Part shown: in pieces, positions 48,260-63,960 of the stretch | How positions within the stretch are numbered: position 1 is the first letter of the stretch | Layout: every line of letters begins with the position of its first letter | Source: an uncultured Chloroflexia bacterium | GTDB lineage: Bacteria; Chloroflexota; Limnocylindria; Limnocylindrales; CSP1-4 | Assembly: GCA_963712745.1 (NCBI GenBank) | Contig: CAVQJC010000001.1 | Span: 96,001 to 160,000 of the forward strand | Length of the DNA: 64,000 nt | Reading direction: 5' to 3' | Position numbers and translations under genes: made by a program | Notes under the pieces: model-generated | What the model saw: only the letters and a program-made list of their open reading frames with translations | The model's database searches: none | Told to the model about the DNA's origin: nothing

Positions 48260-49417
48260 TCACCGCGCACTCGCTCCAGTAGCCCACAGGAGGTCACCAA
48301 GTCTTTCCACGTCCACCTCGATCCCCAGGCCGGAACCGGCTGGCGTGGGTCCCCATCCTCCCTCGCTCCGGGGCTCGTATCCGGCAACATGCTCGAGCGT
48401 CCAGTCATTCATGAACGAGACGGCGAACAGTTGGTCGGCCGGGACCCCGGCCGCGAGGTGACTGACTGCCGCGGTGACGATGTCGCCCCCCCAGCTATCT
48501 TCGATGGTCAGGCGCAGCCCGAGGTCGACGGCCGCGTCCCTGATGACCCGCGCGCGGCCCAGCCCACCCACGCGACTGATCTTGAGGTTGACGTGCTCCA
48601 TGGCGTTCAGCTCCATGGCCCGGATCAGCGATGGGAGGTCGACGATGACCTCGTCGAGCACCATCGGCATCGCCGTCGAGCGTCGGACCGACAACGACTC
48701 CTCCAGGGTGGCGCAGGGCTGCTCCAGGCGGAGTCGATGGCTGGAGTCCAGGCGCTCCACCTGTCGCGCAACGATCACCGCGTCCTGGCGCTGCCAGCCT
48801 CCATTGGCATCGGCGATCAGCGCGTCTTCCGGCCCGGTCGCGGCCAGCACGGCAGCGATACGCTCGACGTCTTCTTGTGGTCGCCCACCGACCTTCAGCT
48901 GGAAGCGATGGATGCCCAGAGCTCGCTGGTGCTCGACGAACGCCTGCATCTCGGCGGGACGGCCCAGGGGCACCGCGACATACAAGGGCAGCCTGTCCTG
49001 GAGGCGACCGCCCAGCAGATGTGCCACGGACAGACCGGTGGCCTTGCCCATGGCATCCCAGCAGGCGGTGTCCAACGCGCTCTTTGCGTATCCGGAGCCC
49101 CGCAGCGCTGCCTCCATCCGCGCCTGCACCTCGGCAGCATTGGTGACGTCGGCACCGATGACCGCCGATGCCAGGAGGGGCAGGGCCGAACGGGCGCCTT
49201 CGGAATGGGCCGGCAGGTAGGTCGGCCCCAGAGGGCAGGTCTCCCCGAAGCCCGAGGTGCCGTCCTCGGTGACGACCCTCACGACGGTGCTGTCGAGCTG
49301 GTTGACGACTCGTCCCCCGGACATGACGTAGTCCCCGTGGGCGTAGGTCAGCCGGTAGCCATAGACCTCCACCCGGGCTATCGAGGTCGACGTCGTAGTC
49401 GCGCCATCAGGATTCAT
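48260..49417 (-). CDS. Enolase-superfamily enzyme, cis-3-hydroxy-L-proline dehydratase / hydroxyproline-betaine epimerase subgroup
   Basis: GETCPLGPTYLP, FQLKVGG, DAN, EQP, LDE, NLKISRVGGL, TIEDSWGGDIVTAA. Confidence 0.8.
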   Translation of the reverse strand: MNPDGATTTSTSIARVEVYGYRLTYAHGDYVMSGGRVVNQLDSTVVRVVTEDGTSGFGETCPLGPTYLPAHSEGARSALPLLASAVIGADVTNAAEVQARMEAALRGSGYAKSALDTACWDAMGKATGLSVAHLLGGRLQDRLPLYVAVPLGRPAEMQAFVEHQRALGIHRFQLKVGGRPQEDVERIAAVLAATGPEDALIADANGGWQRQDAVIVARQVERLDSSHRLRLEQPCATLEESLSVRRSTAMPMVLDEVIVDLPSLIRAMELNAMEHVNLKISRVGGLGRARVIRDAAVDLGLRLTIEDSWGGDIVTAAVSHLAAGVPADQLFAVSFMNDWTLEHVAGYEPRSEGGWGPTPAGSGLGIEVDVERLGDLLWATGASAR

Positions 49418-49462
49418 GGTCGCTCCTCATCTCCACCTTCACCCTGGACGAAGCCGTCTCCA

Positions 49463-51814
49463 TCAGGCCGCCTGGTGCTCGGTACGCTCGATGATCTCGT
49501 CCTGGAGCGCGCGAGAGATGTCGCAGAAGTAGTCGCTGTAGCCGGCCACGCGGACGATGAGGTCGCGGTGTGAGTCCGGATCGGCCTGCGCCTCGCGAAG
49601 CGTCTCTGCGCTGACCACGTTGAACTGGATGTGGTGACCACCGAGACCGAAGTAGGTGCGAACCAGGTGGCGGATGGTGACGATGCCGGCGTCGCCGTCG
49701 GCTAGTCCTGGGCTGAGCTTCATGTTCAGGAGCGTGCCGCAGGTCCGGCCGTGGTCCATCTTGGCAGCCGATCGGAGCACCGCGGTCGGACCCAGTCGGT
49801 CCATGCCGTGGGACGGCGAGATGCCCTCCGAGAGAGGCGCGCCGGCGGCACGGCCATCGGGCGTGGCACCGGTGACCTGGCCGAAGTAGACGTGGCACGT
49901 GGTCGGCAGCATGTCCACGCCGTAGCGGCCTCCACGCCCGTTGGGACGTCCGTCGACCGCATCCACGAAGGCCTCGAAGGCCCGGCGCATCAGGTCATCG
50001 GCAGCATCGTCATCGTTGCCCCACTTGGGCGAACGGTTGCGCAGGGTCAGGCGTAGCCGCTCCTGGCCCGCGAAGTCGTCGCGGAGCGCGACCAGCAGAT
50101 CCGGCATCGACACGTCAGCGTCGTCGTAGACGTGGGACTTGAGCGCCGCCAGGCTGTCGGTGAGCGTCCCGATGCCCACGCCCTGCACGAACGAGGTGTT
50201 GTACCGCGCCCCGCCGGCGTTGTAATCGAGGGCCTTCTCGATGCAGTCGTCGGTGATGAGCGAGAGGAACGGCGCCGGCATCTCCGCCGCGTAGATGGCC
50301 TCGATGTGGTCGTTGCCGCGCAGCTTGATGTCAAGCGTGTGCCGGAGCTGTGCTCGCCAGGCGTCGAAGACGTCGTCGAACGACTCGAGGCTCGCACCGT
50401 TCGAGGGTCCGAGTCGCGTGCCCGTGGCCGGGTCGATCCCGTCGTTGAGGGCGACCTCCAGCATCTTGGGCAGGTTGATGTAGCCGGTCAGGATGTAGGC
50501 CTCCTTGCCGAAGGCACCGGCCTCGACGCAACCGCTGGTACCACCCTCGCGCGCGTCCTCGACGCTCTTGCCCATGCGCGTCAGCTCGGCTACGACCGCG
50601 TCGGCATTGAATACGGAGGGGTAGCCGTAGCCCTGCCGGATGACCCGCGCCGTGGCCTCGATGAAGGCGTCGGGCGTCACGCTCGAGACCTGGATGTTGG
50701 GGCTCGGCTGGACGAGATGGAGATCGTCGACGACCTCGAGGAGCAGGTAGGACACGTCGCCCACGCCATCGCTCCCGTCCGGCAGCACGCCGGCCATGTC
50801 GATGGCCGCGAAATCGGTGTAGGTGCCGCTCTCCGCGGCCGTCACCCCCACCTTGGGCGGCGCGGGATGGTCGTTGAACTTGATGAAGAAGCACTCCAGG
50901 AGCTCGCGGGCGCGCTCGCGTGTCAGGCTCCCGTCGGCGAGGCCCTGCTGGTAGAACGGCTCCAGGTGCTGGTCGAGGTGGCCCGGCGAGAAGGCATCCC
51001 AGCCGTTGAGCTCGGTGATGACCCCGAGATGACAGAACCAGTACATCTGGAGCGCCTCGTGGAAATCGCGAGGCGCGTTGCGGGGCACCCGGTCACAGAC
51101 GTCGGCGATGCGCTCGAGCTCGGCCCGGCGCACGGGATCGGCCGTGACCGCGAGGCGCCTGGCTTCTGCGGCGTGACGCTCGGCGAGGATGGTGATGGCC
51201 TCGGCGGCGATGTCCATGGCCGCCAGCTCATCGAGCCGCTCGGGAGCGGCGGGATCGTCGCTGGCCTCCCAGCGAGCACGTGAGCGGGCCACATCGGCAC
51301 CGAGATCGAGCATGCCCTTGCGGTAGAGCTTGCCGTCACCCACGGTGTGACCCGGAGCGCGCTGCTCCATGAACTCGGTGAAGAGGCCGGCGGCGTAGGC
51401 CTCGTGCCAGGCAGGCTCCAGGCCTTCGAAGATACGATCGCGCAGGCTGCGGCCCTGCCAGAAGGGGATGACCTCGGTGCGGTATGACTCGAAGACCTCG
51501 TGGTCGACCGCATAGGCGGTCAGCTCACGGCTGTCGAGGATGCGCAGGTCCTGGAGGCTGTGGCAGGTCAGTTCCGGGAAGGTCGAGACCGCGCGAGGGC
51601 GTGGGCCGCGGTCGCCCACGATGAGTTCGTCCGCACCGATGGAGATGGTCTTGCGCTCGCAGATGTAACGGAAGGCCATGGCTCGACGCAGCGGCGGCGA
51701 GAGCCCTTCGACGCCGGCCGCGTAGAAACGCGTCACCAGCTGGGCACGTTCGGCCGAGATCGATGGCGGCGTGGTCAGGCTCCGCTCGCGCAATCGCGTC
51801 GTCCGATCGTTCAT
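49463..51814 (-). CDS. hypD: Glycyl radical enzyme, trans-4-hydroxy-L-proline dehydratase
   Basis: FTEFMEQRAPGHTV, ELNGWDAFSPG, PAPPKVG, TYTDFA, TSGCVE, LTGY, MLPTTCHVYFG and RVAGYS are the active-site segments of C. difficile HypD as recalled. Confidence 0.88.
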   Translation of the reverse strand: MNDRTTRLRERSLTTPPSISAERAQLVTRFYAAGVEGLSPPLRRAMAFRYICERKTISIGADELIVGDRGPRPRAVSTFPELTCHSLQDLRILDSRELTAYAVDHEVFESYRTEVIPFWQGRSLRDRIFEGLEPAWHEAYAAGLFTEFMEQRAPGHTVGDGKLYRKGMLDLGADVARSRARWEASDDPAAPERLDELAAMDIAAEAITILAERHAAEARRLAVTADPVRRAELERIADVCDRVPRNAPRDFHEALQMYWFCHLGVITELNGWDAFSPGHLDQHLEPFYQQGLADGSLTRERARELLECFFIKFNDHPAPPKVGVTAAESGTYTDFAAIDMAGVLPDGSDGVGDVSYLLLEVVDDLHLVQPSPNIQVSSVTPDAFIEATARVIRQGYGYPSVFNADAVVAELTRMGKSVEDAREGGTSGCVEAGAFGKEAYILTGYINLPKMLEVALNDGIDPATGTRLGPSNGASLESFDDVFDAWRAQLRHTLDIKLRGNDHIEAIYAAEMPAPFLSLITDDCIEKALDYNAGGARYNTSFVQGVGIGTLTDSLAALKSHVYDDADVSMPDLLVALRDDFAGQERLRLTLRNRSPKWGNDDDAADDLMRRAFEAFVDAVDGRPNGRGGRYGVDMLPTTCHVYFGQVTGATPDGRAAGAPLSEGISPSHGMDRLGPTAVLRSAAKMDHGRTCGTLLNMKLSPGLADGDAGIVTIRHLVRTYFGLGGHHIQFNVVSAETLREAQADPDSHRDLIVRVAGYSDYFCDISRALQDEIIERTEHQAA

Positions 51815-51817
51815 CCC

Positions 51818-52822
51818 TCAGCCTCCAACGTGGATCTCAAGCCGATAGCCCCGGAGCAGTTCAGCCGCGGCGGCGATTTCCGCGGGGCCCGGTGGCTGTA
51901 CCTCTGCCATCCTGTCAGCTCCTCCAAGTCGAGCCAGCTTGGATGCCCCGAGTTGGTGGTATGGCAGCAGGTGCAGGCGCCGCGAGCGCAGCCCCGATGT
52001 CAGCGACCCGATGGCATGCAACGTCGCGGGATCGTCCGTCCAGCCCGGCACGAGCGGCAGCCGCAGCCAGATCTCGGCACCGCCGGCATCGAGCCTGCGC
52101 AGATTCTCGAGGATGGGCTCGAGCGGCACGCCCGTCGACTCTCGATGGCGCTGCTCGTCGGCGCCCTTGAGGTCGAAGAGCCAGAGGTCGGTCAGCGGGA
52201 CCACGCGATCGAGCGTGGCCGGTGTGGCGAAGCCGCTGGTATCGACGCAGGTGTGGATGCCGCGGCGCCTGGCCTCCTCGAGACAGGCGGTGAGGAAGGC
52301 CGGCTGTGCCAGCGGCTCGCCACCCGAGAAGGTCACGCCGCCGCCCGACTGCTCGAAGAACGGGCGGTCACGCTCCACCACGGCGAAGACCTCATCCACC
52401 GTCGTTCGCTGGCCCACTAGCTCGCGCGCGCCTGAGACGCACGCGTCCGCGCAAGCTCCGCACCGCAGGCACAGGAGCGGGTCGGGCCGCGTCGGGCCCT
52501 CAGCGAGGCCCACGGGGCAGACCGCGTGGCAGGCGCCGCAGTCGATGCAGCGCTCCCCGATGATGCGGATCTCCGCCTCACGCGCCCGGCTCTCGGGGTT
52601 GTGGCACCAGGGGCAATCGAGCGGGCAGCCCTTCAGGAACACCGTGGTGCGGATGCCCGGCCCGTCATGGATCGAGAAGCGCTGGATATCGAAGCTGACA
52701 CCGGTGGGAAGACTCGCCGCACGCCGGGACGCTTCGAGGTCAGGCTCCCGCGTCGCGCCCGACACGGCGACCGCCGCCACTCCCGCTGTCGCAGCCCTGG
52801 GCAGCTCGTTCCGACCCGTCAT
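51818..52822 (-). CDS. Glycyl-radical-enzyme activating enzyme (radical SAM with ferredoxin insert)
   Basis: HDGPGIRTTVFLKGCPLDCPWCHNPE, two CxxCxxCxxxC, GGVTFSGGEP; ATG overlaps the GH127 stop. Confidence 0.93.
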   Translation of the reverse strand: MTGRNELPRAATAGVAAVAVSGATREPDLEASRRAASLPTGVSFDIQRFSIHDGPGIRTTVFLKGCPLDCPWCHNPESRAREAEIRIIGERCIDCGACHAVCPVGLAEGPTRPDPLLCLRCGACADACVSGARELVGQRTTVDEVFAVVERDRPFFEQSGGGVTFSGGEPLAQPAFLTACLEEARRRGIHTCVDTSGFATPATLDRVVPLTDLWLFDLKGADEQRHRESTGVPLEPILENLRRLDAGGAEIWLRLPLVPGWTDDPATLHAIGSLTSGLRSRRLHLLPYHQLGASKLARLGGADRMAEVQPPGPAEIAAAAELLRGYRLEIHVGG

Positions 52823-54765
52823 GGCGCTTGCCGGCCGGGGACTCGCGGTTGCCATACGCGCATCGTGCCACGCTGCCTGTTCGCCCACAGGAAGTAGGGC
52901 ACGGCCACGAGCTCGACCTCCCGCTCTGCCGGCGCTGTGCCGGTACCCGCGGGCTGGTACAGCCTTCCGCCTCGCGCTCGGCGCCGGACACGGCCGGACG
53001 CCCGAAGGGTATACGTGCCACCGAGCAGGCGTGGTCGCCATGCGGCCGTCACCGGAGCATCGACATCCACGGCTGCCGCAGCCAGATCGACACCGGGATC
53101 CTGGTCACAGGCCTCGAAGCAGTACACCAGTGGGCCGCGCTCCAGGGCGACCTGGCCACGGGTGGCGTCGACGTGCGGGTGCGCCTCCATGAACCGGGCC
53201 GCCATGGGCAGTGAGAGCGTGACGCAGTCTCCGGGCCCCCAGCGACGCCGCAGACGCACATAGCTGCCGGGCCGGACCGTTCGCGCCACATCGTCGCGGA
53301 AGGCCACGGTGGCGTCGCCAGCCCAGGCGGGGATGCGCAGGGACAGTGTCCAGACTTGCGGCGGAGTCTCGAGCAGCGTGAGCGTGACGCCGCCCTCCCA
53401 GGGCAGCCCGCTTCTCAACTCGAGCCGGACAAGGCCCCCGGGCAGGTTCGTTTCGAGCACGCTATCGAGGTACTGGTGGACCTGGATGCCGGCGTCATCG
53501 GCCGTCGCGGCGTAGTGGCCGACGCTGGCCACGAGGCGCATCAGGTTGGGAGGACAGCAGGCCACGTAGTACCACTCGGCGCGACGGTGCGAACCGTTGC
53601 TCAGCAGCGGATTGCCGTAGAAGAAGGTGCGCCCGTCGCTGGAGACCGCGGGGAGCACGCCGTTGTAGAGCGTGCGCTCCATGAGCTCCGCATAGCGAGC
53701 CTTGCCCGTCGCGAGCAGCAACCGCCAATTCCATTGGATGCTGGCCACCGCTGCGCACGTCTCGCAGTATCCGCTGCCTGGGGGCAGCTCGTAGGGATCG
53801 CCCAGACCCTCCGTCTCGGGGCGCTGGCCGATGCCGCCGGTGATGTACAACTTGCCCCCGACCAGGTCGCGCCACTGTCGCTCCGAGGCCGCGAGCAGCG
53901 CCTGGTCCCCTTCTTCGAGATAGTCGTCGACGGCGCCGATCGCCAGGTACAGGGCCCGTACGGCATGACCCTCCAGGAGCGACGCCTCACGCACGGGCAC
54001 GTGGTCCTGGAAGTAGGCCGGGCCTCCGGAATACCAGCGCCCGGCGTTGCCCCCGAGCCGGCCGTGACCACGCGCGTCAAGGAAGAAGCGAGCCAGTTCC
54101 ATGTAGCGTCGCTCGGCCGTCTCGCGGTAGAGCTCGATGAGGGCCGACTCGACGAGCGGATGCCCATCGGGTTCGGGTCGTCGCCCAGGTCCGAAGACGC
54201 TGTCGATATGGTCGGCGAAGCGGATGGCGACCTCGAGCAGCCGACGATCGCCGAGGGCTCGACTCCAGGCCACCGCAGCCTGGATGAGATGTCCGGCGGC
54301 ATAGATCTCGTGGCTGTAGGCCACGTCGGTCCAGCGCAGCTCCGGGAAGCCCACCTGGTAGAACGAGTTGAGATACCCGTCGGGTGACTGGGCACGCACG
54401 ACCAGGTCTATCGTCTGCTCGGCAGCGGCAGACACACGCAAGGGCAGTCCCTGGGGCGTCGCCCAGGCGACCGCTTCAAGCCACTTGTAGACGTCGGTGT
54501 CGAGGTACGGCGGGAAGCGCACCAGGTCCAGCTCGCGATGCTCGCGGGCGGCTGCAGCCTTCAGCATCGAGAGGTTCCCGGCCCGATCGAGCATGGCGTA
54601 GCCACGCGCCAGGCTGGCCTCGCGGTTGAGCCGCTGCTGGTGGGCCCAGAAGCCACCCGCAGCCGGGACCGCCGCGCGCCACAGCGGGCGGAGCCGTGCG
54701 AAGGGGCCGGGGTCGACCGCGACCGGGCCGCCCGCGTGCTCCTCGCGCTCGATGTGCGTAGGCAT
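52819..54765 (-). CDS. GH127 beta-L-arabinofuranosidase (HypBA1-like)
   Basis: DTDVYKWLEA, HEIYAAGHL, GHAVRALY, KLYITGG, ETEG, YCETCA and ACCPPN (Zn/Cys catalytic set). Confidence 0.92.
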   Translation of the reverse strand: MPTHIEREEHAGGPVAVDPGPFARLRPLWRAAVPAAGGFWAHQQRLNREASLARGYAMLDRAGNLSMLKAAAAREHRELDLVRFPPYLDTDVYKWLEAVAWATPQGLPLRVSAAAEQTIDLVVRAQSPDGYLNSFYQVGFPELRWTDVAYSHEIYAAGHLIQAAVAWSRALGDRRLLEVAIRFADHIDSVFGPGRRPEPDGHPLVESALIELYRETAERRYMELARFFLDARGHGRLGGNAGRWYSGGPAYFQDHVPVREASLLEGHAVRALYLAIGAVDDYLEEGDQALLAASERQWRDLVGGKLYITGGIGQRPETEGLGDPYELPPGSGYCETCAAVASIQWNWRLLLATGKARYAELMERTLYNGVLPAVSSDGRTFFYGNPLLSNGSHRRAEWYYVACCPPNLMRLVASVGHYAATADDAGIQVHQYLDSVLETNLPGGLVRLELRSGLPWEGGVTLTLLETPPQVWTLSLRIPAWAGDATVAFRDDVARTVRPGSYVRLRRRWGPGDCVTLSLPMAARFMEAHPHVDATRGQVALERGPLVYCFEACDQDPGVDLAAAAVDVDAPVTAAWRPRLLGGTYTLRASGRVRRRARGGRLYQPAGTGTAPAEREVELVAVPYFLWANRQRGTMRVWQPRVPGRQAP

Positions 54766-54859
54766 GCATCACCTCACGGCGCGTCTCGCCAGGTGAAGAC
54801 CGGGGTAGACGAAAGGGCGCAGGCCTCGGCGGCCCACGCCCTTGCTCTTCAGTGCCGGT

Positions 54860-56117
54860 CTAGGACTCGGGACTGAACGAGATCGTCTCCTCGATCACGT
54901 TGGTACCGTCGGCCTGGGTGACCCAGATGTCGTACATGTTGGCGGTGATATCGCCATTCTCGTCGAAGTCGATGGGGCTGCTGGCACCCTCGAAATCGAT
55001 GTCCTCGCCCGCGAGGACGGCGTTGATGGCGTCGGGCAGCTGCTCGAAGGTGTACTTCTCGCCCGGCGCCGCAGAGATCGACCTGGATCTCCGGGCCGAA
55101 GACCGTGGGGTCGTCCGAACCGGCCTTGAGAGCCGCCAGGAAGGCCAGGAAGACGCTGTCGAAGGCCTGGCCTGTGAAGCCGTAGAAGGGCACGCCCTCA
55201 GGTGCAGTCGACTCGAAGAGTTCCTGGTACCCGGCGAACGACGAGCCGGCACTGCTGTTGCCGATCGTCCCGCGCATGCCCTCGACCGTGGACTCTACCT
55301 CCGTGCAGGCCTGGAGCGTGTCAGAGCCCAGGGTCCTGGTGGGATCCCAGGCACCTGTGCGCGTCAACGGACCCTTGAGCTTGGCCCAGTCACCACAGAA
55401 GGTAATGAACAGCCACGCGTCCGGGTCGCCCTGGACGGCCTGCTGCGCTTCGGTATCGAGCGTGGCGCCTTCGGGATTGAAGATGACTTCCTCACCGATG
55501 GTTCCTCCGGCACCCGTCCAGGCCTCCTTGAAGACGTCGTTGAGGCCTACGCCATAGGCGTCGTTACGGGTGAGGAGGTTGACAGTAGCGTCCTGGCCGA
55601 ACTGGTCGGCCATGACCGACGCCAGCACCCTGCCCTGGAGAGCATCCGAGGAGACCGGGCGCCAGAGCAGGCCGTTCTTCTCCATCTCGGTGATGGCGGG
55701 ACTCGTGCCACCGGTGAACTGCGCGATGCCACCGGGGCCGAAGACGGATTCGAAGATGGCGATCGAGACACTGCTGTAGAAGTCGCCGACGACGACGTCC
55801 ACGTCATCGACCTCGGCCAGCTTCTTGGCCGCCTCGGTGCCGGCGGTCTGGTTGCCCTGGCTGTCCTCGGAAGCCACGAGCGAGACGTTGATGGAGTCCA
55901 GACCCATGTCCTCGACGGTCGCCGCGACATAATCGACCGCGCTGGAAGTCGCGTGGTCCCAGGCCTGGCCGGCGGGACCGGCATCGCCGGTCAGGGCCAC
56001 GAGAACCCCATACCGAAGGTCCAGCTCCGGCGCCTCCTGGGCCGCGACTGGCGCCGCCGTGGCCGCGAGCAGCAGAGCGGTGATACCTGCCGCTGACAGT
56101 CTCATTCGTTCCGACAT
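54860..56117 (-). CDS. Branched-chain-amino-acid-type (LivJ-like) ABC substrate-binding protein, frameshift near 55080
   Basis: Signal peptide; LVALTGD, NDAYGVG; true tail DIDFEGASSPIDFDENGD lies in ORF 54860. Confidence 0.85.
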
Positions 56118-56217
56118 ATGCGGTCCTCCCTATCTCCGTATCCCAAGCCCTCAGGGGTGCCTGAGCACAAGCTGGCAGCCAGACTGTGGTACTGCTCGCG
56201 GCCGAGGATAGCACCCC

Positions 56218-56245
56218 GGCACTCGATTGCTAACACTCGTGTGCC
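56218..56245. promoter_or_regulatory. Tandem LacI-type operators upstream of the SBP-GH127-hypD operon
   Basis: GGCACTCGATTGCT plus AACACTCGTGTGCC; overlaps minus-strand TTAGCA-N17-TATCCT. Confidence 0.6.
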
Positions 56246-56289
56246 GTCCGTTGCAGGCGCAGATTCCGAGGTGGACGCCTGGCGGCCGG

Positions 56290-57393
56290 TCAGGACCTGG
56301 TGCGCGAGCCTGGCGCCGGACCAGTCGAGCCACGGACGACCAGGGAAGGTTCGATTACCGGGTGCTGCTGATCAGCGGGAACCTCTGCCCCCTGCAGCTT
56401 CTGGAACAGGATGCCCACCGCAGTCCTGATCATCTCGTCGACCGGCTGCTTCACCGTGGTCAAGGCCGGCACGCTGATCGTCGCCAGCAAGGTGTCATCG
56501 AAGCCGACGACCGAGATGTCCTCCGGGACGCGCAGACCCCGCCGTTGGGCAGCCTGCAACACGCTGATGGCGACGGCATCGGTCGAACACACGATCGCTG
56601 TCGGCGGGTCGTCCAAGCCCAACAGCCGACCGAGCGCATCACCGGCACCGGTGGCGTCTTGCGACGTGTCCTGGATGTAATCGGGGCGCAGGCCAGTCCC
56701 GGGTCCAGCGACATAGGCTCGGTAGGCATCCTCGCGCTGTCCGGCCTCGCCGATGCGACCATCGACCACGAGCGCGATGCGTTGGTGCCGAAGCGCCGTC
56801 AGGTGATCGAGGGCCGCTGTGATACCTACGCGGTTATCGACGTTGACGGTCGGAATCGTCTCGGACCGAGTCCAATGCCAGACGGCGACGACCGGGACGT
56901 TCGTGTCCCTCAGCTCAGCAGCGAAGTCGGGCCGCTCCAGCAGGTCCCCCAGGAAGATGATGGCGTCGCAGTGGCGTGACTCGAGGATGCGCCACAGCTC
57001 GACACCCTCGTCAGCTCGCCCGTGGACGTGACCCAGCACCACGTTGTAGTCATGGTTGCCGGCCTCGACCGACGCCGCCTGGATGGCGGCCGCGTCCAGT
57101 GGGTCGATGATCTCGCGCACGATGAGGCCCAGCAACATGGTCGGCGCGCCGCGAAGTCCGCGCGCCAGCGGATTGGGTCGATAGCCCATCTGGCGCGCAG
57201 CCTTGAAGATGCGCTCGCGTGTCCGCTCGGCGACCGGAAACCCGGTAGGTACGCCCGAGAGCACGCGGGACACCGTCGACCGCGAGACGTCCGCCTCACG
57301 GGCGATGTCCCGCATCGTAGGAGCTGTTCGGCGAGGACGCTCATACGAACGCTGTGCGGGTGTGAGCGACCGTCCATCGCTAGGGTCTGACAT
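56290..57393 (-). CDS. LacI-family transcriptional regulator
   Basis: TMRDIAREADVSRSTVSRVL, YRPNPLARGL, VPEDISVVGFDD, LTTVKQP, LVVRGST. Confidence 0.95.
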   Translation of the reverse strand: MSDPSDGRSLTPAQRSYERPRRTAPTMRDIAREADVSRSTVSRVLSGVPTGFPVAERTRERIFKAARQMGYRPNPLARGLRGAPTMLLGLIVREIIDPLDAAAIQAASVEAGNHDYNVVLGHVHGRADEGVELWRILESRHCDAIIFLGDLLERPDFAAELRDTNVPVVAVWHWTRSETIPTVNVDNRVGITAALDHLTALRHQRIALVVDGRIGEAGQREDAYRAYVAGPGTGLRPDYIQDTSQDATGAGDALGRLLGLDDPPTAIVCSTDAVAISVLQAAQRRGLRVPEDISVVGFDDTLLATISVPALTTVKQPVDEMIRTAVGILFQKLQGAEVPADQQHPVIEPSLVVRGSTGPAPGSRTRS

Positions 57394-57443
57394 CAGTCAC
57401 TGCGCACAATAGTAAGGCGTCGATCGCCTGTGTGGCACCCACC

Positions 57444-57480
57444 TTGACCGACGGCAATCGCGTGCCTACACTCGATTGCC
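57444..57480 (+). promoter_or_regulatory. Promoter TTGACC-N17-TACACT with tandem LacI-type operators
   Basis: GGCAATCGCGTGCC (57453-57466) plus TACACTCGATTGCC (57467-57480); CACTCGATTGC is also at 56220. Confidence 0.65.
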
Positions 57481-57568
57481 GTTGAGACCCGTGCGGTAGG
57501 GAGCTGGGACATGGGCGAAGTGAGGGCGCGGCGCTGCGTTCACCGTCGCCCCGTGCGCTAACCGCGCC

Positions 57569-58453
57569 ATGGATAATCTCGCCCAGCTCATCGTCAACGG
57601 CCTGGTGACCGGCGGGATCATCGCCATGGGCGCGGTCGGCGCATCACTCATCTTTGGTGTCCTGCGGGTCGGCAACTTCGCTCACGGTGACTACCTGACG
57701 CTGGGCGCCTACGCCGCGCTGTTCGCGAACGTGGCCATGGCCCAGAACCTCCTGGTCGCCGCGGTGGTGGCCGTCGTGGGCACAGCTCTCTTCGCGATCG
57801 CGATGGAGTTCATCCTCTTCCGACCGATGCGCGGGAAAGGGTCCGCAAGCCTGTTCATCATCACCATCGGGCTGGCCATGGCCATGCGCCACGTGATCTA
57901 CCTGCAATACGGCGCCGCGACCCAGCAGTACGACATCGATCAGTTCGCAGTCGTCGTGGTCGGATCGGTGCGTTTCTCGCCGGGTGCGATGGTCGCCACG
58001 GTGGCAGCCCTCATCGCCATCCCGGCCGTGGGGCTGTTCCTCTCGCGATCGCGCATCGGCAAGTCGATGCGGGCCCTCGCCAATGAGCCCGAGCTGGCCG
58101 CCGTCTCAGGCATCGACACTGATCGCATCGCCGTCTACACGTGGGCGCTGGCGGGCGGGTTGGCCGGACTCGCGGGCATCCTGCTGGGACTCCTGCAGGG
58201 CACCTTCAACCCCGAGCTGGGCTGGGCCTTCCTGTTCCTCATCTTCACGGCCGTCATCCTCGGCGGCATCGGCAGCGCCTACGGTGCCCTGATCGGCGGA
58301 CTGGCCCTGGGCCTGCTCATGGAGGTTTCGACCTGGTCCGGCCTGATGGGCGGGCTTGACCCACGCTTCAAGCCGGTCGTCGCGTTCGCGGCGCTCATCC
58401 TCCTGCTGCTGTACCGGCCGCAGGGCCTCTTCGGCAAGGCGCGACTGCTGTGA
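57569..58453 (+). CDS. HAAT ABC permease (LivH-like)
   Basis: NFAHGD, GKSMRAL, VILGGIGS.YGA, RPQGLFG. Confidence 0.92.
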   Translation: MDNLAQLIVNGLVTGGIIAMGAVGASLIFGVLRVGNFAHGDYLTLGAYAALFANVAMAQNLLVAAVVAVVGTALFAIAMEFILFRPMRGKGSASLFIITIGLAMAMRHVIYLQYGAATQQYDIDQFAVVVVGSVRFSPGAMVATVAALIAIPAVGLFLSRSRIGKSMRALANEPELAAVSGIDTDRIAVYTWALAGGLAGLAGILLGLLQGTFNPELGWAFLFLIFTAVILGGIGSAYGALIGGLALGLLMEVSTWSGLMGGLDPRFKPVVAFAALILLLLYRPQGLFGKARLL

Positions 58454-59433
58454 GCGGCATCCTCGCTCCGGACTTCTGGATCTACGTCGGCGTCATCGCC
58501 GGCATCTACACCATCTTCGCGCTGGGCCTCCAGGTGCAGTACGGCGTGGCCGGCCTGGTCAACCTGGGCCAGGTGGCGTTCATGGCCATCGGCGCCTACA
58601 CCATGGCCATCCTCGTGGCCCGCTACGAGTGGTCGATGATCCCGGCGTCCATCGCCGCCATCGGCGCGGCCATGGCCTTCGCGGTCGTGCTGGGCGTGCC
58701 CACGCTGCGCCTGCGCGCGGACTACTTGGCCATGGTCACCATCGCGGCGAGCGAGATCGTGCGCTACATGGCCTTGAACCTCAATGACATCACCGGGGGT
58801 CCGGCCGGCACGATCGCCCTCCTCGGCCCGGCCAAGCTGGCCAGCTACAACGGCGAGTGGCAAGAGTTCCAGGGCTGGGTGCAGTCGACGCTGAGCAGCA
58901 TCACCGGGGGTGGGGTAAGCCCCGACTCGGCCATGCTCATCATCGTTTGGATCGTCGCCCTGATCCTCCTGACCGCCACCTGGCTCATGGTCCGCTCTCC
59001 CTGGGGCCGCATCCTGCGTGCCATCCGCGAGGACGAGGATGCTGCCCAGGCCATGGGCAAGGACACCTTCAGCCGCAAGCTCCAGGCGCTCGTGCTGGGC
59101 GCTGCCTTCGGCGGGCTCGCGGGCCTCTTCATCGCCTGGCAGGTCTCGGTCTTCACGCCCAACGACTTCAGGCCCATCTTCACCTTCTACGCCTACATCA
59201 TCATCATCCTCGGCGGGCCCACTCGCGTCTGGGCGGTCCCGGTCGGCGCCATCCTCTTCGGCATCCTCTTCGCAGGCACGCGTTTCCTCGACTTCTACCC
59301 ACTGAACGAGCTGGCTTCTGGCGACCGCGCCTACTTGCGCCTGCTCCTCGTCGGCCTGCTGCTCGTGGTGCTGATGGCGCTCCGTCCTCAGGGCCTCTTC
59401 GGCAAGAAGGAGGAGCTGATCCTTGAGAAGTGA
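58450..59433 (+). CDS. HAAT ABC permease (LivM-like)
   Basis: NLGQVAFMAIGAY, LRLRADYLAMVT, LRAIREDE. Confidence 0.92.
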   Translation: MSGILAPDFWIYVGVIAGIYTIFALGLQVQYGVAGLVNLGQVAFMAIGAYTMAILVARYEWSMIPASIAAIGAAMAFAVVLGVPTLRLRADYLAMVTIAASEIVRYMALNLNDITGGPAGTIALLGPAKLASYNGEWQEFQGWVQSTLSSITGGGVSPDSAMLIIVWIVALILLTATWLMVRSPWGRILRAIREDEDAAQAMGKDTFSRKLQALVLGAAFGGLAGLFIAWQVSVFTPNDFRPIFTFYAYIIIILGGPTRVWAVPVGAILFGILFAGTRFLDFYPLNELASGDRAYLRLLLVGLLLVVLMALRPQGLFGKKEELILEK

Positions 59434-60220
59434 GCAGCCGCTCCTCGTCGTCGATGGGGTGAGCAAGCGTTTCGGAGGATTGCAGGCCGTGGACGCTGCG
59501 TCGTTCAGCGTGGGACCCGCGAGCATCACGGCGCTGATCGGCCCCAACGGTGCCGGCAAGACGACGGTCTTCAACCTGCTGAGCGGCTACCTCCCCTCCG
59601 ATAGTGGCACGGTCCGGTTCGATGGCGGGTCGGTCAGCGGCCTGAAGGCGCATGCCATCGCTCGGCGCGGCCTGGTGCGCACCTTCCAGATCCCGCGTGT
59701 GCTGACGCGCATGAGCGTTCTGGAGAACGTCATGCTTGCCGCCCAGCACCAGCCGGGCGAGCGGATGGGCGCGGCGCTGGTGATCCCCCGTCGCATCAGG
59801 CGTCGAGAGGACGAGGTGCGCCAGCAGGCCGACGAGATCCTGCGCCTGGTGAATCTCGAGCGGCTGGCAGGGGACTACGCAGGGACGCTGTCAGGCGGCC
59901 AGCGCAAACTCCTCGAGTTCGGGCGAGTGCTCATGACCGACCCCAAGCTGATCCTGCTCGACGAGCCCATGGCCGGCGTGAACCCGACGCTCGGCGAACA
60001 GCTCCTGGAGCACGTCGTGGAACTGCGCGCCTCGCGCGGCATCGGCTTCGTGTTCATCGAGCACGACATGGACGTGGTCATGTCGTACGCCGAGCGCGTC
60101 GTGGTCATGGACGAGGGCCGCGTCGTGGCCGATGCCTCGCCCGACGAGGTACGCGCCGACCCGCGCGTGATCGAGGCGTACCTGGGACGCCACGCCGCCG
60201 ATATCGAGGACGAAGCATGA
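59423..60220 (+). CDS. HAAT ABC ATPase (LivG-like)
   Basis: GPNGAGKTT, RTFQ, LSGGQRK, LDEPMAG, VIEAYLG. Confidence 0.93.
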   Translation: MRSEQPLLVVDGVSKRFGGLQAVDAASFSVGPASITALIGPNGAGKTTVFNLLSGYLPSDSGTVRFDGGSVSGLKAHAIARRGLVRTFQIPRVLTRMSVLENVMLAAQHQPGERMGAALVIPRRIRRREDEVRQQADEILRLVNLERLAGDYAGTLSGGQRKLLEFGRVLMTDPKLILLDEPMAGVNPTLGEQLLEHVVELRASRGIGFVFIEHDMDVVMSYAERVVVMDEGRVVADASPDEVRADPRVIEAYLGRHAADIEDEA

Positions 60221-61089
60221 GCATCGCCCCCCGGTCCGTCGAGACGCTGCCCGAGGATGCGTCCGCGAGCAAGGAGCATGCGCTCACGGTGACCGACGTC
60301 GTCAGCGGCTATGTCGACGAGCCGGTCCTTCGGGGCGTCTCCATCGACGTGCCGCGACAGACGGTCGTCACCGTCATCGGGCCCAACGGCTCGGGCAAGT
60401 CGACGCTGCTCAAGACCATCGTCGGACTGCTGCGTGGCCGTGAGGGCTCGGTCCTGATGCTCGATCGCGACGGTGCCCGACAGGAGCTCATCGGCAAGCG
60501 ACCGCACCAAGTCGTGGAGCTGGGTCTAGCCTTCGTGCCCCAGCTCTCGAACGTCTTCACCGACCTGTCCATCCGGGAGAACCTCGAGATCGGCGGCTTC
60601 CCGATCCGTGGCAATGAAGGCGAGCGCATGGACCGTGTGCTGGAGCACTTCCCGATCCTGCGAGAGCGGCTGAGCCAGCGCGCCGGAACCCTGTCCGGTG
60701 GCCAGCGGCAGATGCTCGCGCTGGGACGCGCCCTGATGAGCGATCCCCACCTGCTGGTGCTCGACGAACCCTCGGCCGGCCTGGCTCCGACCGTCGTCGA
60801 CGAGGTCTTCGAGCGCATCCAGTCCATCAACGCCAGTGGCATCACCGTGCTCATCGTCGAGCAGAAGGCGCGCCAGTGCCTGGCCATCTCGGACTACGGC
60901 TACGTCCTGGACATGGGCAAGAATCGCTACGAGGGGCCGGGCAAGCAGCTGCTGCACGACCCCGAGGTGGTGGACCTGTACCTGGGCTCACGCGGTCGGT
61001 TGGGCCGGTCTCGGCAAGCCGCGGCCAGGGCCGCGAAGTCCGTGGCAAACGAAGCCCGTGATGCCCAGCCAGGTACATCGGACGCATGA
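60217..61089 (+). CDS. HAAT ABC ATPase (LivF-like)
   Basis: GPNGSGKST, LSGGQRQML, LDEPSAGLAP, LYLG. Confidence 0.93.
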   Translation: MSIAPRSVETLPEDASASKEHALTVTDVVSGYVDEPVLRGVSIDVPRQTVVTVIGPNGSGKSTLLKTIVGLLRGREGSVLMLDRDGARQELIGKRPHQVVELGLAFVPQLSNVFTDLSIRENLEIGGFPIRGNEGERMDRVLEHFPILRERLSQRAGTLSGGQRQMLALGRALMSDPHLLVLDEPSAGLAPTVVDEVFERIQSINASGITVLIVEQKARQCLAISDYGYVLDMGKNRYEGPGKQLLHDPEVVDLYLGSRGRLGRSRQAAARAAKSVANEARDAQPGTSDA

Positions 61090-63515
61090 CGCACCTGGCC
61101 TCCAAACCGCGCCGGTTCCTGGGCTCGTCCATGCCGGTCCGGCTGGCCTGGCAGGCGCTCGGTGCGGAGTGGCTCGATGACCGCTCGATGCGAGTCGATG
61201 TCCGCGCAGAACGCTTCGAACCGTCACTCGAGGTGCTCACCGGCGTACCCAGTGAGATCGCGGCAGGCCCCGTCGGGGAGCACAAGGACGCCACGGTGCA
61301 GGTCGACGCCTGGAGCGACAACGTCATCCGCGTACGCTGGAGCCCAGGCGGGGTGCTCCCCGATGGCGCGACGCCGATGCTGGTGGGCGCACCCGAGGCG
61401 CTGGGTCAGTTCGAGCGTCTCGACGGTGACGAGGATGGAGCATTCGGCCTGCGTACAGGGGCCTGGACGGTATGGGTCGAACCCGATCCGATCCGGCTCG
61501 TCGTACGTGACCGGGATGGCGCCGTCGTCGCAGTGACCCGTGCCCCCGACCACGAGGCTATCCGGCGCTCGGATGGCATGTGGGACCGGACCGCGCAGCG
61601 ATGGCTGTACCTCAACCGCCACGCCTATCCGCTCGGCTCGACCGAAGAAGGGGTCGACCGGTGCGCCTTCGTCACCTTCGAGCTGCGGCCCGACGAGCGC
61701 GTCTATGGCCTCGGCGAGAGCTTCGGACGGGTCGAGAAGACCGGCCTCGAGCAGCGACTGTGGGTGGCGGAGGCCTTCACCAACAACTCGCCGGTGGTGT
61801 ACAAGCCCGTGCCCTTCTGCCTGTCCACACGCGGCTACGGCATCTACGTCAACAGCTCACACGCGATGCAGACACACATCGGCGACCTGGACCCTACGGC
61901 GCTATCGTGGATCGTCGAAGACACCGACGTGCTCGACTTCTTCATCGTCCTGGGGCCCGGGCTGCCCGACGTCCTGCGTCGCTACACCGACCTCACCGGC
62001 ACGCCCGCGGTGCCTCCACGCTGGTCGTTCGGGCTGTGGCTCAGCCGCTGCACGTACACCTCCCAGGACGAGGTGCTGGAGGTGGCGCGGGAGGCGCGGG
62101 AGCGCGACATCCCCGCAGACGTGATGCACATCGACACCGGCTGGTTCGAGAACGACTGGGTCTGTGACTGGCGCTTCGGTTCACGCTTCCCGGACCCCGC
62201 CGCGATGGTCGCGGAGCTGCGCGACATGGGTTTCGCGGTGACTCTCTGGCAGTGGCCCTACGTCGGCGTCGACTCGCCGGCCTTCGCCGAGGCGCGTGAC
62301 GCTGGTGTGCTGGTCCGCCGTCGCGGCGGTGGGGTGCTCGTGCTGCCCGGCCGCAACGGACCCGACGTGGGGGTCATCGACTACTCCGACCCGGCCGCAG
62401 CGCGCTGGCTCCAGGATCGCCTGCGGCCGCTACTTGAGATGGGTGTCGCCGCGATCAAGGCGGATTTCGGCGAAGCTGCTCCGGCCGATGGTGTCTACGC
62501 CGGCATCGCCTCGGAGGCAGCCCACAACGCCTATCCCCTCCTCTACAACCGAGCCGTCTGGGAGGCATCCGAGGGTGTACGGGGATCGGAGGACACGGTC
62601 ATCTGGGCGCGCTCCGCATGGGCCGGCTCGCAGCGCTATCCGCTGCACTGGTCCGGCGATGGCCTCGCTCGCCATGAGGATCTTGCGTGCGTGCTGCGCG
62701 CGGCGCTCTCGATGGGGCTCTCAGGCTTCCCCTTCTACAGCCATGACATCGGCGGTTTCCTGGGGGAACCCAGCCCGGAGCTCTACGTCCGCTGGGCGCA
62801 GTTGGGGCTGTTCTCGTCGCACGCCCGCACGCACGGCCTGGGTCCACGCGAACCGTGGGCCTTCGGCGCAGAGGCCGAAACCATCGTGCGCCGCTATGCC
62901 CAGCTCAGATACGAACTGATGCCGTACTTGTGGAGCGAGGCGCTCGAGTGCGGACATACCAGTCTGCCCATGCTGCGGCACCTGGTTCTCGCCTACCCTG
63001 ACGACCCGACGGTCAGGGCTATCGAGGACGAATTCCTCCTCGGAGGTTCCCTGCTGGTGGCGCCCGTCCTTGACGAACGGGATGCCAGGGACGTGTACCT
63101 GCCACACGGCGAGTGGGTCGAGTGGCACACCGGTGAGGTGCTCCAGGGCGGATGCTGGAGACACGTGTCAGCACCTCTCGAGGTCCTGCCCATCTACCTG
63201 CGCGGAGGCTCCATCATCCCGCTCGGGCCGCGCGCGAGGTATTCGGGCGAGCAGCGGCTCGATCCGTTGCGGCTGCTCATCCCAGAGCCTGGACGGGCTG
63301 GTGGATACACCGTGCGTGACCCGGAAGGCGACATCCATGTGGCCTACGTCAAAGACGGCGACCGGCTCGAGGTCGACGTGACCGGAGCACGTGGCGAAGT
63401 CTCAGTGGAGGTCCCAGGCCGCTCGGCGTGGGAGGAGGAGAGGTCCTCGTCGAACGGGCACGACGGCGGGCGGCGGCGCCTCCTGGTACGGGTGCAGCCG
63501 GAGCGTTCGTCTTGA
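61086..63515 (+). CDS. GH31 alpha-glycosidase (YicI alpha-xylosidase-like)
   Basis: YGLGESF, WSFGLW, IKADFGE (nucleophile), HNAY, HWSGD (acid/base), SHDIGGF, EPW. Confidence 0.92.
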   Translation: MTHLASKPRRFLGSSMPVRLAWQALGAEWLDDRSMRVDVRAERFEPSLEVLTGVPSEIAAGPVGEHKDATVQVDAWSDNVIRVRWSPGGVLPDGATPMLVGAPEALGQFERLDGDEDGAFGLRTGAWTVWVEPDPIRLVVRDRDGAVVAVTRAPDHEAIRRSDGMWDRTAQRWLYLNRHAYPLGSTEEGVDRCAFVTFELRPDERVYGLGESFGRVEKTGLEQRLWVAEAFTNNSPVVYKPVPFCLSTRGYGIYVNSSHAMQTHIGDLDPTALSWIVEDTDVLDFFIVLGPGLPDVLRRYTDLTGTPAVPPRWSFGLWLSRCTYTSQDEVLEVAREARERDIPADVMHIDTGWFENDWVCDWRFGSRFPDPAAMVAELRDMGFAVTLWQWPYVGVDSPAFAEARDAGVLVRRRGGGVLVLPGRNGPDVGVIDYSDPAAARWLQDRLRPLLEMGVAAIKADFGEAAPADGVYAGIASEAAHNAYPLLYNRAVWEASEGVRGSEDTVIWARSAWAGSQRYPLHWSGDGLARHEDLACVLRAALSMGLSGFPFYSHDIGGFLGEPSPELYVRWAQLGLFSSHARTHGLGPREPWAFGAEAETIVRRYAQLRYELMPYLWSEALECGHTSLPMLRHLVLAYPDDPTVRAIEDEFLLGGSLLVAPVLDERDARDVYLPHGEWVEWHTGEVLQGGCWRHVSAPLEVLPIYLRGGSIIPLGPRARYSGEQRLDPLRLLIPEPGRAGGYTVRDPEGDIHVAYVKDGDRLEVDVTGARGEVSVEVPGRSAWEEERSSSNGHDGGRRRLLVRVQPERSS

Positions 63516-63555
63516 CCATCCAGGCCCGCTCGAGGACAGTGCTGAGAGGGTCCGC

Positions 63556-63960
63556 ATGACCGATAGGCTCCAGGCCCACATCGACGAGTTCCGGACGCAC
63601 GACGGGAAGTTGGGCGGTGATTTCGAGGGTTCCTCGACGCTGCTGCTGCACCACCTGGGCGCGAAGACCGGCATCGAGCGCGTGTGCCCCCTGGGGTACC
63701 AGCTTGTCGATGGTGACTACGCCGTCTTCGGTACCAACTGGGGCAGGCCCGAGCATCCGGCCTGGTACTACAACGTCCAGGCCCACCCGGAGACGACGAT
63801 CGAAGTCGGCAGCGAGGCGTTCCCCGTCAGGGCTCGCGTGGTGCAAGGTGAGGAACGGGACCGGATCTGGGCTCGCCAGGCCCAGCTCGTGCCTGCCATG
63901 GGCGAATACGGGCGACGAGCCGGTCGCAAGATCCCCGTGGTGATCCTGGAGCCGATCTGA
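63556..63960 (+). CDS. Deazaflavin (F420)-dependent nitroreductase-family oxidoreductase
   Basis: IDEFR...G.LGG, LLLHHLGAKTG..R, HPAWYYNVQAHP, RKIPVVILEP. Confidence 0.88.
   Translation: MTDRLQAHIDEFRTHDGKLGGDFEGSSTLLLHHLGAKTGIERVCPLGYQLVDGDYAVFGTNWGRPEHPAWYYNVQAHPETTIEVGSEAFPVRARVVQGEERDRIWARQAQLVPAMGEYGRRAGRKIPVVILEPI

Follow-up and report, generated by a model that had tools for sequence, protein, structure and literature searches.

A candidate gene cluster for the anaerobic use of hydroxyproline-O-arabinosides in an uncultured Chloroflexia bacterium

We analyzed a 64,000-nt window from an uncultured Chloroflexia bacterium (GCA_963712745.1, contig CAVQJC010000001.1, positions 96,001-160,000 of the forward strand), in which positions 48260-63515 carry eleven genes for a HAAT-family ATP-binding cassette (ABC) importer, a GH127 and a GH31 glycosidase, the glycyl radical enzyme HypD with its activase, an enolase-superfamily enzyme, and a LacI-family repressor. 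We give a probability of about 0.55 to the reading that these genes, arranged as repressor-controlled divergent operons, serve the anaerobic catabolism of hydroxyproline-O-arabinosides from the hydroxyproline-rich glycoproteins of plants and algae. Such glycoproteins are a large carbon and nitrogen pool in plant and algal cell walls, and their hydroxyproline is nearly all O-glycosylated. A functional link between the hydrolysis of beta-L-arabinofuranosides and the anaerobic dehydration of hydroxyproline is likely, given the tight interleaving of the genes, the single-copy status of HypD and GH127, the exchange of the regulator, and the contexts of the paralogs. Hydroxyproline-O-arabinosides are the evident substrate that both activities would share. 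The cluster had been singled out in an earlier note made from the sequence alone. Scans of the window proteins with Pfam and NCBIfam, by which we assigned gene families with the NCBIfam equivalog cut-offs applied, found all eleven genes at the positions given there and in the families named.

Enzymes of the cluster and their coupling

The glycyl radical enzyme falls inside the HypD clade, as the earlier note had supposed. It passes the NCBIfam equivalog NF043068 with 1143.5 bits against a cut-off of 1100 (1143.2 bits in the genome search), and it matches Clostridioides difficile HypD (6vxc) with 913.7 bits, the next structure being glycerol dehydratase at 480.7 bits. Enzymes for N-methyl-hydroxyproline and D-hydroxyproline score far lower than 6vxc (8id1, 407.7; 8iof, 386.5; 7vua, 363.1 bits); these are the hydroxyproline-derivative glycyl radical enzymes HpyG, HpzG, and HplG, with functions as given in PMC13450708. 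All 14 active-site residues of the C. difficile enzyme (F152, R156, H160, W277, D278, K326, S334, D339, F340, C434, E436, Y450, T645, and G765) are identical in the window protein, where His156, Asp273, Asp334, Ser329, Phe335, Tyr445, and Thr638 correspond to His160, Asp278, Asp339, Ser334, Phe340, Tyr450, and Thr645. The residues were counted by hand on the printed 6vxc alignment, in which the chain numbering is the native numbering plus 20, with C434, E436, and G765 as anchors. Backman et al. tie F152, R156, H160, W277, D278, K326, S334, D339, F340, Y450, and T645 to hydroxyproline binding or proton transfer (PMC7077986). The motifs RVAGYS, with Gly758, and GCVE, with Cys429 and Glu431, are also present, and the protein is predicted to be a true trans-4-hydroxy-L-proline dehydratase. 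The activase passes TIGR02494 (322.7 bits) and scores 292.9 bits with the HypD activase model NF043069, below its cut-off of 425; its start was set at the ATG at 52822, and a GTG further downstream is a possible alternative.

For the enolase-superfamily enzyme the best PDB match is 4mgg (299.5 bits), and the best NCBIfam match is the cis-3-hydroxy-L-proline dehydratase model NF043002 (368.6 bits; next family 119.6). Because the NF043002 cut-off of 500 bits is missed, we call the enzyme LhpJ-like and not LhpJ. Homologs at 67% identity follow or flank HypD in a genome of the same family and another genus (G099) and in the locus L012, and they too lie under this cut-off (391 and 398 bits, respectively). 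The motifs FQLKVGG, ADANGGW, LEQPC, LDEVI, and NLKISR, which match 4mgg in the alignment, presumably supply the general-base lysines and metal ligands of the muconate-lactonizing (MLE) subgroup, and the enzyme is a candidate cis-3-hydroxy-L-proline dehydratase/2-epimerase.

A hydroxyproline betaine or N-methyl-hydroxyproline substrate, suggested by a URO-D/MtaA-like neighboring gene and by the HpbD-related enolase enzyme, was considered and rejected as the main reading because the glycyl radical enzyme resembles HypD far more than HpyG or HpzG; the open reading frames (ORFs) scanned at 37-48 kb included neither MttB nor a corrinoid protein. As a separate observation, the same genome (G000) carries a second glycyl radical enzyme of 842 amino acids with an activase on contig C11 at ~307.2-318 kb (L159:1257-11779). 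This enzyme has no close characterized match (best PDB match PflD, 230 bits; HypD, 198 bits), adjoins a CUT2 sugar ABC system, AraA, and an AraR-like LacI, and may be an orphan sugar-linked radical enzyme.

The family proposed for the GH127 protein was borne out, with the Cys/Glu/Zn catalytic set of HypBA1 intact. The protein matches PF07944 (284.6 bits), PF20736 (64.1 bits), and PF20737 (82.6 bits), and its best structures are two beta-L-arabinofuranosidases (4qjy, 413 bits; HypBA1, 3wkw, 317 bits). Residues Glu319, Glu335, Cys337, Cys403, and Cys404 align with HypBA1 E322, E338, C340, C417, and C418 in 3wkw, and HypBA1 His142, His194, His270, and Tyr386, which we take to be sugar-binding, are also kept. 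In HypBA1, C417 is the nucleophile and E322 the acid/base, and C340, C417, C418, and E338 form the zinc site (PMC8106489). HypBA1 frees arabinose from beta-Ara2 and from Ara1-3-Hyp, and the Xanthomonas enzyme prefers Ara-Hyp (PMC6085000). With paralogs in araDBA operons and arabinofuranosidases as its best PDB relatives, the window protein is a probable beta-L-arabinofuranosidase.

The GH31 protein matches 5f7c (450 bits) and YicI (395 bits), and its Asp460 and Asp525 align with YicI D416 and D482, presumably the catalytic nucleophile and acid/base. It misses the cut-off of the alpha-xylosidase model NF007940 (506.6 against 606 bits), and Thr351-Gly352 replace YicI Cys307-Phe308, which we take to be the basis of xylose preference, as in 5f7c. 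The protein belongs to the alpha-glucosidase/alpha-xylosidase clade. A literature search for its specificity by way of PDB 5F7C/BT_0339 returned nothing relevant. Every reading considered here leaves GH31 unexplained, and the role assigned to it in the cluster is conjectural.

The glycosidases are physically bound to the hydroxyproline side of the cluster. The overlap that had been reported between the GH127 stop and the activase start is present, with TGA at 52821-52819 and ATG at 52822-52820 joined as ATGA, and livF and GH31, a pair that the earlier note had not mentioned, are joined by a second ATGA at 61086-61089; each glycosidase is therefore tied to a hydroxyproline-side gene. The genome holds one HypD over the cut-off and one PF07944 match, parted only by the activase, so that their adjacency is not a matter of chance in this genome. 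Neither glycosidase has an obvious signal peptide, as had been stated: the N-terminal Kyte-Doolittle maximum, in 12-residue stretches, is 0.85 for GH127 and 1.07 for GH31, against a signal-like 2.08 for the binding protein. The repressor gene does lie between the two arms, but it shares the strand of the binding-protein gene and is divergent from livH only. The G+C content of the cluster, 0.66-0.72, equals that of its surroundings.

Operators, origin, and conservation

The cluster carries the operator type of the arabinose regulon, since an 11-mer at its promoters is shared with the araA/araD promoter and with AraR-type loci. Exact copies of GCAATCGAGTG number 4 in the 4.2-Mb genome, where 1.3 are expected; two lie at the cluster promoters, one in the divergent araA/araD promoter on contig C2, and one inside an ORF on C11. 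The inverted pair with a 15-nt offset occurs twice in the genome, in the livH promoter and, on C13, upstream of a LacI paralog (56% identity) located opposite a CUT2 sugar ABC system. The sister species G006 retains the two sites of the cluster (L096 1337-1347, with a 1-mismatch copy at 1351-1361, and L096 2727-2752). Among congeners, G024 has the same inverted pair upstream of a LacI gene next to GH127, and in G018 a copy with one mismatch immediately precedes GH127. Counted at up to one mismatch, the 11-mer shows no overall enrichment: the window has 6 occurrences where 1.58 are expected, a number attained in 1 of 100 shuffles, and 260 kb of genus loci have 7. We relied on copies without mismatch, on the inverted pairing, and on location alone. 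A promoter-like site with weak -35 and -10 elements at 57444-57472 overlaps the inverted pair; consensus scans as a whole were not above chance (promoter-like, 2 against 1.4 in shuffles; terminator-like, 2 against 3.1). The palindrome GCACTCGAGTGC at 46947-46958, between the URO-D-like and a hypothetical gene, was considered as a third operator and dropped when it was not found in G006.

Relatives point to an arabinose regulon as the source of the LacI/GH127 pair. PF07944 occurs in 19 of the 49 genus genomes; 13 of these GH127 loci were fetched, and their GH127 proteins are 40-48% identical to that of the window. In nine of the 13 a LacI gene beside GH127 encodes a protein 44-54% identical to the window repressor, which has two paralogs in its own genome (56% and 53% identity). 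The three genus loci that were annotated are all arabinose loci: LacI with GH127-AraD-AraB-AraA (L117); a CUT2 ABC system, LacI, GH127, GH51, a CUT1 ABC system, and AraD-AraB (L119); and GH127, LacI, a CUT1 ABC system, and an FGGY kinase (L122). These comparisons support the descent of the LacI/GH127 pair from the L-arabinose regulon of the genus. A hydroxyproline module is found in G099, where a GntR-FCD regulator, activase (66%), HypD (71%), a HAAT system, and the enolase enzyme (67%) stand together; this module lacks LacI, GH127, and GH31. The arabinose-locus paralogs of GH127 and LacI, taken with the plain hydroxyproline module of G099 and the aerobic hydroxyproline cluster of the genus member G013, mark the cluster as a mosaic of two modules, and it looks like a hydroxyproline module in which GntR was swapped for an arabinose-type LacI and GH127 and GH31 were inserted.

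All eleven genes occur in the same order in G006, on two abutting contig ends. One (C54) carries GH127 (82% identity), activase (82%), HypD (93%), and the enolase enzyme (84%, in two ORFs), followed by the hypothetical and URO-D-like genes that also flank the window cluster; the other (C56) carries the binding protein (96%, truncated where the contig begins), LacI (78%), livHMGF (90-96%), and GH31 (82%, running off the end). A contig end of G014 holds livG-livF-GH31 at 94% nucleotide identity, and neither HypD nor the binding protein was found in that 78%-complete assembly. On the metagenome contig L085 a GH127 gene (79%) precedes an activase gene (89%); HypD and activase are absent beside the GH127 relatives that rank next (34-49%). 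Two of these genes are broken: the G006 enolase gene is split into two ORFs (L004 5423-6561), and the G014 GH31 gene is divided into three parts and has an in-frame TGA (L138 9893-12327). They are either frameshifted pseudogenes or assembly errors.

Table 1. Features of the cluster and of the adjoining genes, in window coordinates
Feature	Position	Strand	Remarks
Enolase-superfamily enzyme, muconate-lactonizing subgroup, LhpJ-like	48260-49417	-	Last gene of minus run; Pfam MR_MLE_N/C
HypD, predicted trans-4-hydroxy-L-proline dehydratase, glycyl radical enzyme	49463-51814	-	Gly758 radical site, Cys429/Glu431 loop
HypD-activating radical SAM enzyme	51818-52822	-	Two ferredoxin-type Cys motifs; TIGR02494 over cut-off
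GH127 cysteine glycosidase, probable beta-L-arabinofuranosidase, cytoplasmic	52819-54765	-	Pfam GH127 catalytic, middle, and C-terminal domains
HAAT-family periplasmic/extracellular binding protein, divergent subfamily	54849-56117	-	Peripla_BP_6; hydrophobic N-terminus
Operator-like 11-mer GCAATCGAGTG, LacI/binding-protein intergenic	56220-56230	-	Conserved at same promoter in G006
LacI-family repressor, paralog of genus AraR-like regulators	56290-57393	-	Pfam LacI and Peripla_BP_3
Inverted 11-mer pair, LacI/livH divergent region	57454-57479	.	One copy with 1 mismatch, 4-nt spacer
livH permease	57569-58453	+	BPD_transp_2
livM permease	58450-59433	+	BPD_transp_2
livG ATPase	59423-60220	+	ABC_tran and BCA_ABC_TP_C
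livF ATPase	60217-61089	+	ABC_tran
GH31 alpha-glycosidase, cytoplasmic	61086-63515	+	Pfam GH31 N-terminal, TIM-barrel, and C-terminal domains
Conserved hypothetical gene, membership uncertain	47138-48223	+	Convergent with enolase gene; no Pfam or NCBIfam match
URO-D/MtaA-like gene, membership uncertain	45801-46943	-	URO-D 109 bits over C-terminal half

The hypothetical and URO-D/MtaA-like genes form a divergent pair beside the cluster that is kept in G006, and their products are faintly alike (BLASTP E 6e-5). By tblastx, the amino acid identity to G006 is 89% in the frame of the hypothetical gene and 69% in the antisense direction, and the URO-D/MtaA-like protein has 84% identity in L004 (G006) from query residue 74 on. 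The surroundings also include genes for an aldehyde dehydrogenase and an M20 peptidase (37205-39858, minus strand; 8-11 kb away) and, just beyond GH31, one for an F420H2-dependent quinone reductase (63391-63960, plus strand).

Imported substrate and rival explanations

The importer set is complete, with a Peripla_BP_6 protein, two BPD_transp_2 permeases, and two separate LivG/LivF-type ATPases, of which LivG has a BCA_ABC_TP_C tail. The best NCBIfam matches of the membrane and ATPase subunits are LivH/UrtB, LivM, LivG, and LivF/UrtE, every one below cut-off. The binding protein is divergent: Peripla_BP_6 matches its N-terminal half only (60 bits), and its PDB matches are weak. The Pfam scan found no other transporter within the two operons, of either sugar-oligosaccharide or peptide type. 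Since no other transporter is present in the operons and both glycosidases are cytoplasmic, we favor glycoside import by the HAAT system.

The sequences themselves show which genes are present, their catalytic residues and couplings, the settings of their paralogs, and the shared operators; the substrates, the inducer, and the imported form in the following scheme are inferred. The secreted binding protein and LivHMGF would import beta-L-arabinofuranosyl hydroxyproline, with free hydroxyproline as the alternative cargo. In the cytoplasm GH127 would strip the arabinose, and GH31 might remove an alpha-linked sugar; the L-arabinose would pass to AraA, AraB, and AraD, whose genes lie outside the cluster. 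The probable inducer is arabinose or an arabinoside, which would free the operators common to both operons and the ara genes from the AraR-type LacI. HypD, once the activase has installed its glycyl radical, would convert the freed trans-4-hydroxy-L-proline to pyrroline-5-carboxylate (P5C), and the LhpJ-like enzyme may handle a hydroxyproline isomer. The genome encodes two AraA, AraB, AraD, and one P5C reductase. A bolder form of this scheme makes the binding protein the first HAAT receptor for a glycosylated imino acid and the cluster a self-contained anaerobic pathway under one arabinose-type repressor, running from import through deglycosylation (GH127, with GH31 for an alpha-linked cap) to AraABD and HypD; we advance it tentatively, as somewhat short of an even chance.

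Seven DNA runs from seven studies, with estuary, sediment, and marine sediment labels, contain 0.23-0.52 of the sampled words; the source sample may be the run with the largest share, and runs with small word shares were left out of the habitat reading. Short contigs from RNA libraries of two estuary metatranscriptome studies match the cluster with 0-1 differences in the genes for the enolase enzyme (48810-48971), HypD (51491-51706), and GH127 (54129-54279); others lie on the binding protein (55719-55869), LacI (56782-56948), livH, livM, livG, and GH31, and one (49303-49515) bridges the HypD/enolase junction. We take these contigs as a hint that the cluster is expressed.

Several points weigh against the proposal that the cluster serves hydroxyproline arabinosides. 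The RNA-library contigs may contain DNA and show neither strand nor level, and their depth and uncovered stretches were not used. The genome itself is metagenome-assembled, at 84.55% completeness and 5.03% contamination. We know of no precedent for glycoside import by a HAAT system and of no hydroxyproline-linked substrate for GH31, and the enolase enzyme, as noted, misses the cut-off of its nearest model. On the regulatory side, the 11-mer lies at or beside GH127/LacI in only two of the 13 genus loci (L120 and L122; at most 1 mismatch), and the genome has three AraR-like LacI paralogs, any of which might bind these sites. The pairing is also narrow. HypD over the cut-off was found in two of the 61 relatives searched (G000 and G006) and in two of 401 class genomes (G000 and G099), and the genome of L012, the closest outside genome with both HypD and the enolase enzyme (68% and 67%), gave no GH127 match at E 1e-30.

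The same narrowness appeared in a survey of HypD neighborhoods, with one genome per species, in which the best 80 of 585 HypD relatives were examined (56-69% identity, many phyla). Activase was present in 66 of these loci, with at least 3 kb upstream in 53 and at least 3 kb downstream in 55. A profile built from ten GH127 sequences detected a GH127-family ORF in three of the 80, all in other phyla. In two of them, L007 and L055 from Gemmatimonadota, a GH127-like gene is followed by GntR, activase, and HypD. In the third (L076, a Planctomycetota metagenome-assembled genome, 6521-18142), two 860-residue GH127+DUF6805 genes flank HypD and activase, together with a sulfatase and a major facilitator superfamily (MFS) transporter, an arrangement suggestive of a distinct way of using glycoprotein-linked hydroxyproline, by secreted enzymes; that genome has 21 GH127 candidates, which makes a chance adjacency plausible there. 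The commonest neighbors of HypD were GntR-FCD regulators and oligopeptide-type ABC ATPases (13 loci each), followed by an epimerase/dehydratase (7), sulfatase (3), and M24 peptidase (3). With a GH127-family neighbor in 3 of 80 loci, the pairing is not a general property of HypD and is confined to the genus-level lineage, with rare adjacencies elsewhere. The gene association that the earlier note expected to be conserved thus holds for the full set in the sister species and for part of it in G014, and the neighborhood survey that it called for did find GH127-family genes beside hypD, but neither result makes the association widespread.

The identity of the cargo is where the main competitor enters. 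The binding-protein search matched three of the 49 genus genomes, and the only genus paralog, at 45% identity, is in G013, which also makes it the nearest informative paralog; the other subunits of that HAAT system are 49-62% identical to those of the window. Its genes stand among those for a DAO protein, a Pyr_redox/BFD protein, two DHDPS-family proteins, a GntR-FCD regulator, and AcnX, that is, in a cluster for free hydroxyproline, which speaks against glycoside import and makes free hydroxyproline import a live alternative. Aerobic L-hydroxyproline gene clusters of the kind seen in G013, with LhpJ as one component, have been described (PMC5144071). More distant homologs (31-39%) occur in 11 of 401 phylum genomes, our own included; by tblastn no hydroxyproline or arabinose reference genes were found at six loci of such homologs, and the Pfam neighbors at four of these (luciferase-like oxygenases, DAO, an AMP-ligase, and BCKDH E1) have no bearing on the ligand. 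As an observation apart from the question of cargo, the G013 locus (L097, G013:C6:40000-58000) is a complete-looking aerobic hydroxyproline cluster in which the HAAT importer replaces the usual polar amino acid ABC type.

The window cluster could accordingly be an extensin regulon that involves no glycoside import: HAAT would take up free hydroxyproline, GH127 and GH31 would act on arabino-oligosaccharides or glycopeptides entering through CUT1 and Opp systems, and co-regulation would follow from their origin in the same glycoproteins. The pairing of HypD with HAAT and no glycosidases in G099 fits this, as do the oligopeptide-type ABC ATPases near HypD in 13 of the 80 loci and the example of Bifidobacterium longum, in which a sugar ABC system brings in beta-Ara2 for cleavage by cytoplasmic HypBA1 (PMC8106489). 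Against it, the two operons include no sugar-oligosaccharide or peptide transporter, the annotated AraR-type loci of the same genome have only CUT2 systems of the monosaccharide type, translational coupling ties both glycosidases to genes of the hydroxyproline side, and the regulator has changed from the GntR of G099, G013, and 13 of the 80 loci to a sugar type. We rate this explanation as rather unlikely. That the halves act on unrelated substrates, a hydroxyproline module (HAAT, HypD, activase, and enolase enzyme) having landed by accident in an arabinose-regulon locus, would agree with the separate occurrence of each module in relatives and with the restriction of the combination to one genus-level lineage. 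The genes, however, are interleaved and not juxtaposed (binding protein-GH127-activase-HypD and livF-GH31, with two ATGA overlaps), their order and operators persist between species whose GH127, LacI, and GH31 proteins are 18-22% divergent, and HypD has GH127-family neighbors in Gemmatimonadota and Planctomycetota loci as well, all of which makes an accident improbable. We consider quite improbable a third explanation, in which the substrate is another glycosylated amino acid, either the glucosyl-galactosyl-hydroxylysine of collagen type, used along with collagen hydroxyproline, or an alpha-glycosyl-serine; the main role would then fall to GH31, and GH127 would cleave off a sugar other than arabinose. 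The clade of GH31 would suit it, GH127 is a polyspecific family whose window member has the aceric-acid hydrolase model as its sole NCBIfam match (374 bits against a cut-off of 950), and collagen is rich in hydroxyproline (PMC6219649); the genus paralogs of GH127 in araDBA operons, the operator common to the cluster and araA/araD, and the two arabinofuranosidases as closest GH127 structures all argue the other way.

Relation to known systems

Every part of the cluster comes from a known family; what is new is the combination, its regulation, and perhaps the ligand of the transporter. The operon coupling of HypD with GH127, which the earlier note believed to be undescribed, was indeed met in no paper: no publication joining HypD with GH127, or a radical enzyme with an arabinofuranosidase, was among the literature matches listed, a search whose scope left subscription journals, such as that of the original 2017 HypD paper, outside. 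Huang et al. name hydroxyproline-rich glycoproteins as a possible source of hydroxyproline and describe the enzymes that release it from plant glycoproteins as an open challenge (PMC6219649). If our reading is true, the cluster is a concrete candidate for the missing enzymatic link between plant and algal glycoproteins and anaerobic hydroxyproline fermentation, and it suggests that anaerobic bacteria of sediments consume glycosylated hydroxyproline. It would also be a natural example of pathway invention, in which an arabinose-regulon module is recombined with a hydroxyproline module and the regulator swapped, and an amino-acid-type ABC receptor may have acquired a glycoside as its ligand.

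Three of the closest known systems are on the hydroxyproline side. C. difficile HypD and HypD-AE (6VXC/6VXE) represent the same enzyme family and activase, with all catalytic and hydroxyproline-binding residues in common, but there hypD is paired with the P5C reductase ProC for a Stickland-type use of free hydroxyproline (PMC6219649), whereas the window hypD stands behind GH127 with a LacI-type repressor, HAAT, GH31, and an LhpJ-like enzyme, and ProC is elsewhere in the genome. The aerobic Lhp clusters, including that of Labrenzia aggregata with LhpJ (4MGG), likewise combine an ABC importer, a regulator, and a cis-3-hydroxyproline dehydratase-type enzyme with a pathway for 4-hydroxyproline (PMC5144071). 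In the window the glycyl radical enzyme HypD replaces their O2-dependent epimerase/oxidase/deaminase route, LacI replaces GntR, and two glycosidases are added. The G099 module clusters HypD, activase, the enolase enzyme, and HAAT as the window does, but its binding protein is a canonical Peripla_BP_6 protein (224 bits) that is not orthologous to the one in the window (no tblastn match at 1e-8).

On the arabinose side, the HypBA1 (GH127), HypBA2 (GH121), and HypAA (GH43) system of B. longum and XeHypBA1 of Xanthomonas share with the window a cytoplasmic GH127 with the same Cys/Glu/Zn site, and free L-arabinose from Hyp-linked arabinofuranosides (PMC8106489, PMC6085000). As described in the same two papers, these systems harvest the sugar only, by way of a sugar-type ABC importer for beta-Ara2, and include no hydroxyproline-degrading enzyme. 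The window, unlike them, has an amino-acid-type transporter, would degrade the imino acid as well, and carries no GH121 or GH43 gene in the cluster, to which that search was confined. The AraR-type LacI/GH127/araDBA loci of the genus have paralogs of LacI and GH127, and the same 11-mer is found in G024 and in the araA/araD promoter of the genome analyzed here, but those loci combine sugar ABC transporters with arabinose catabolic genes and hold no hydroxyproline genes, whereas the window cluster joins the same regulator and glycosidase types to HypD and a HAAT importer.

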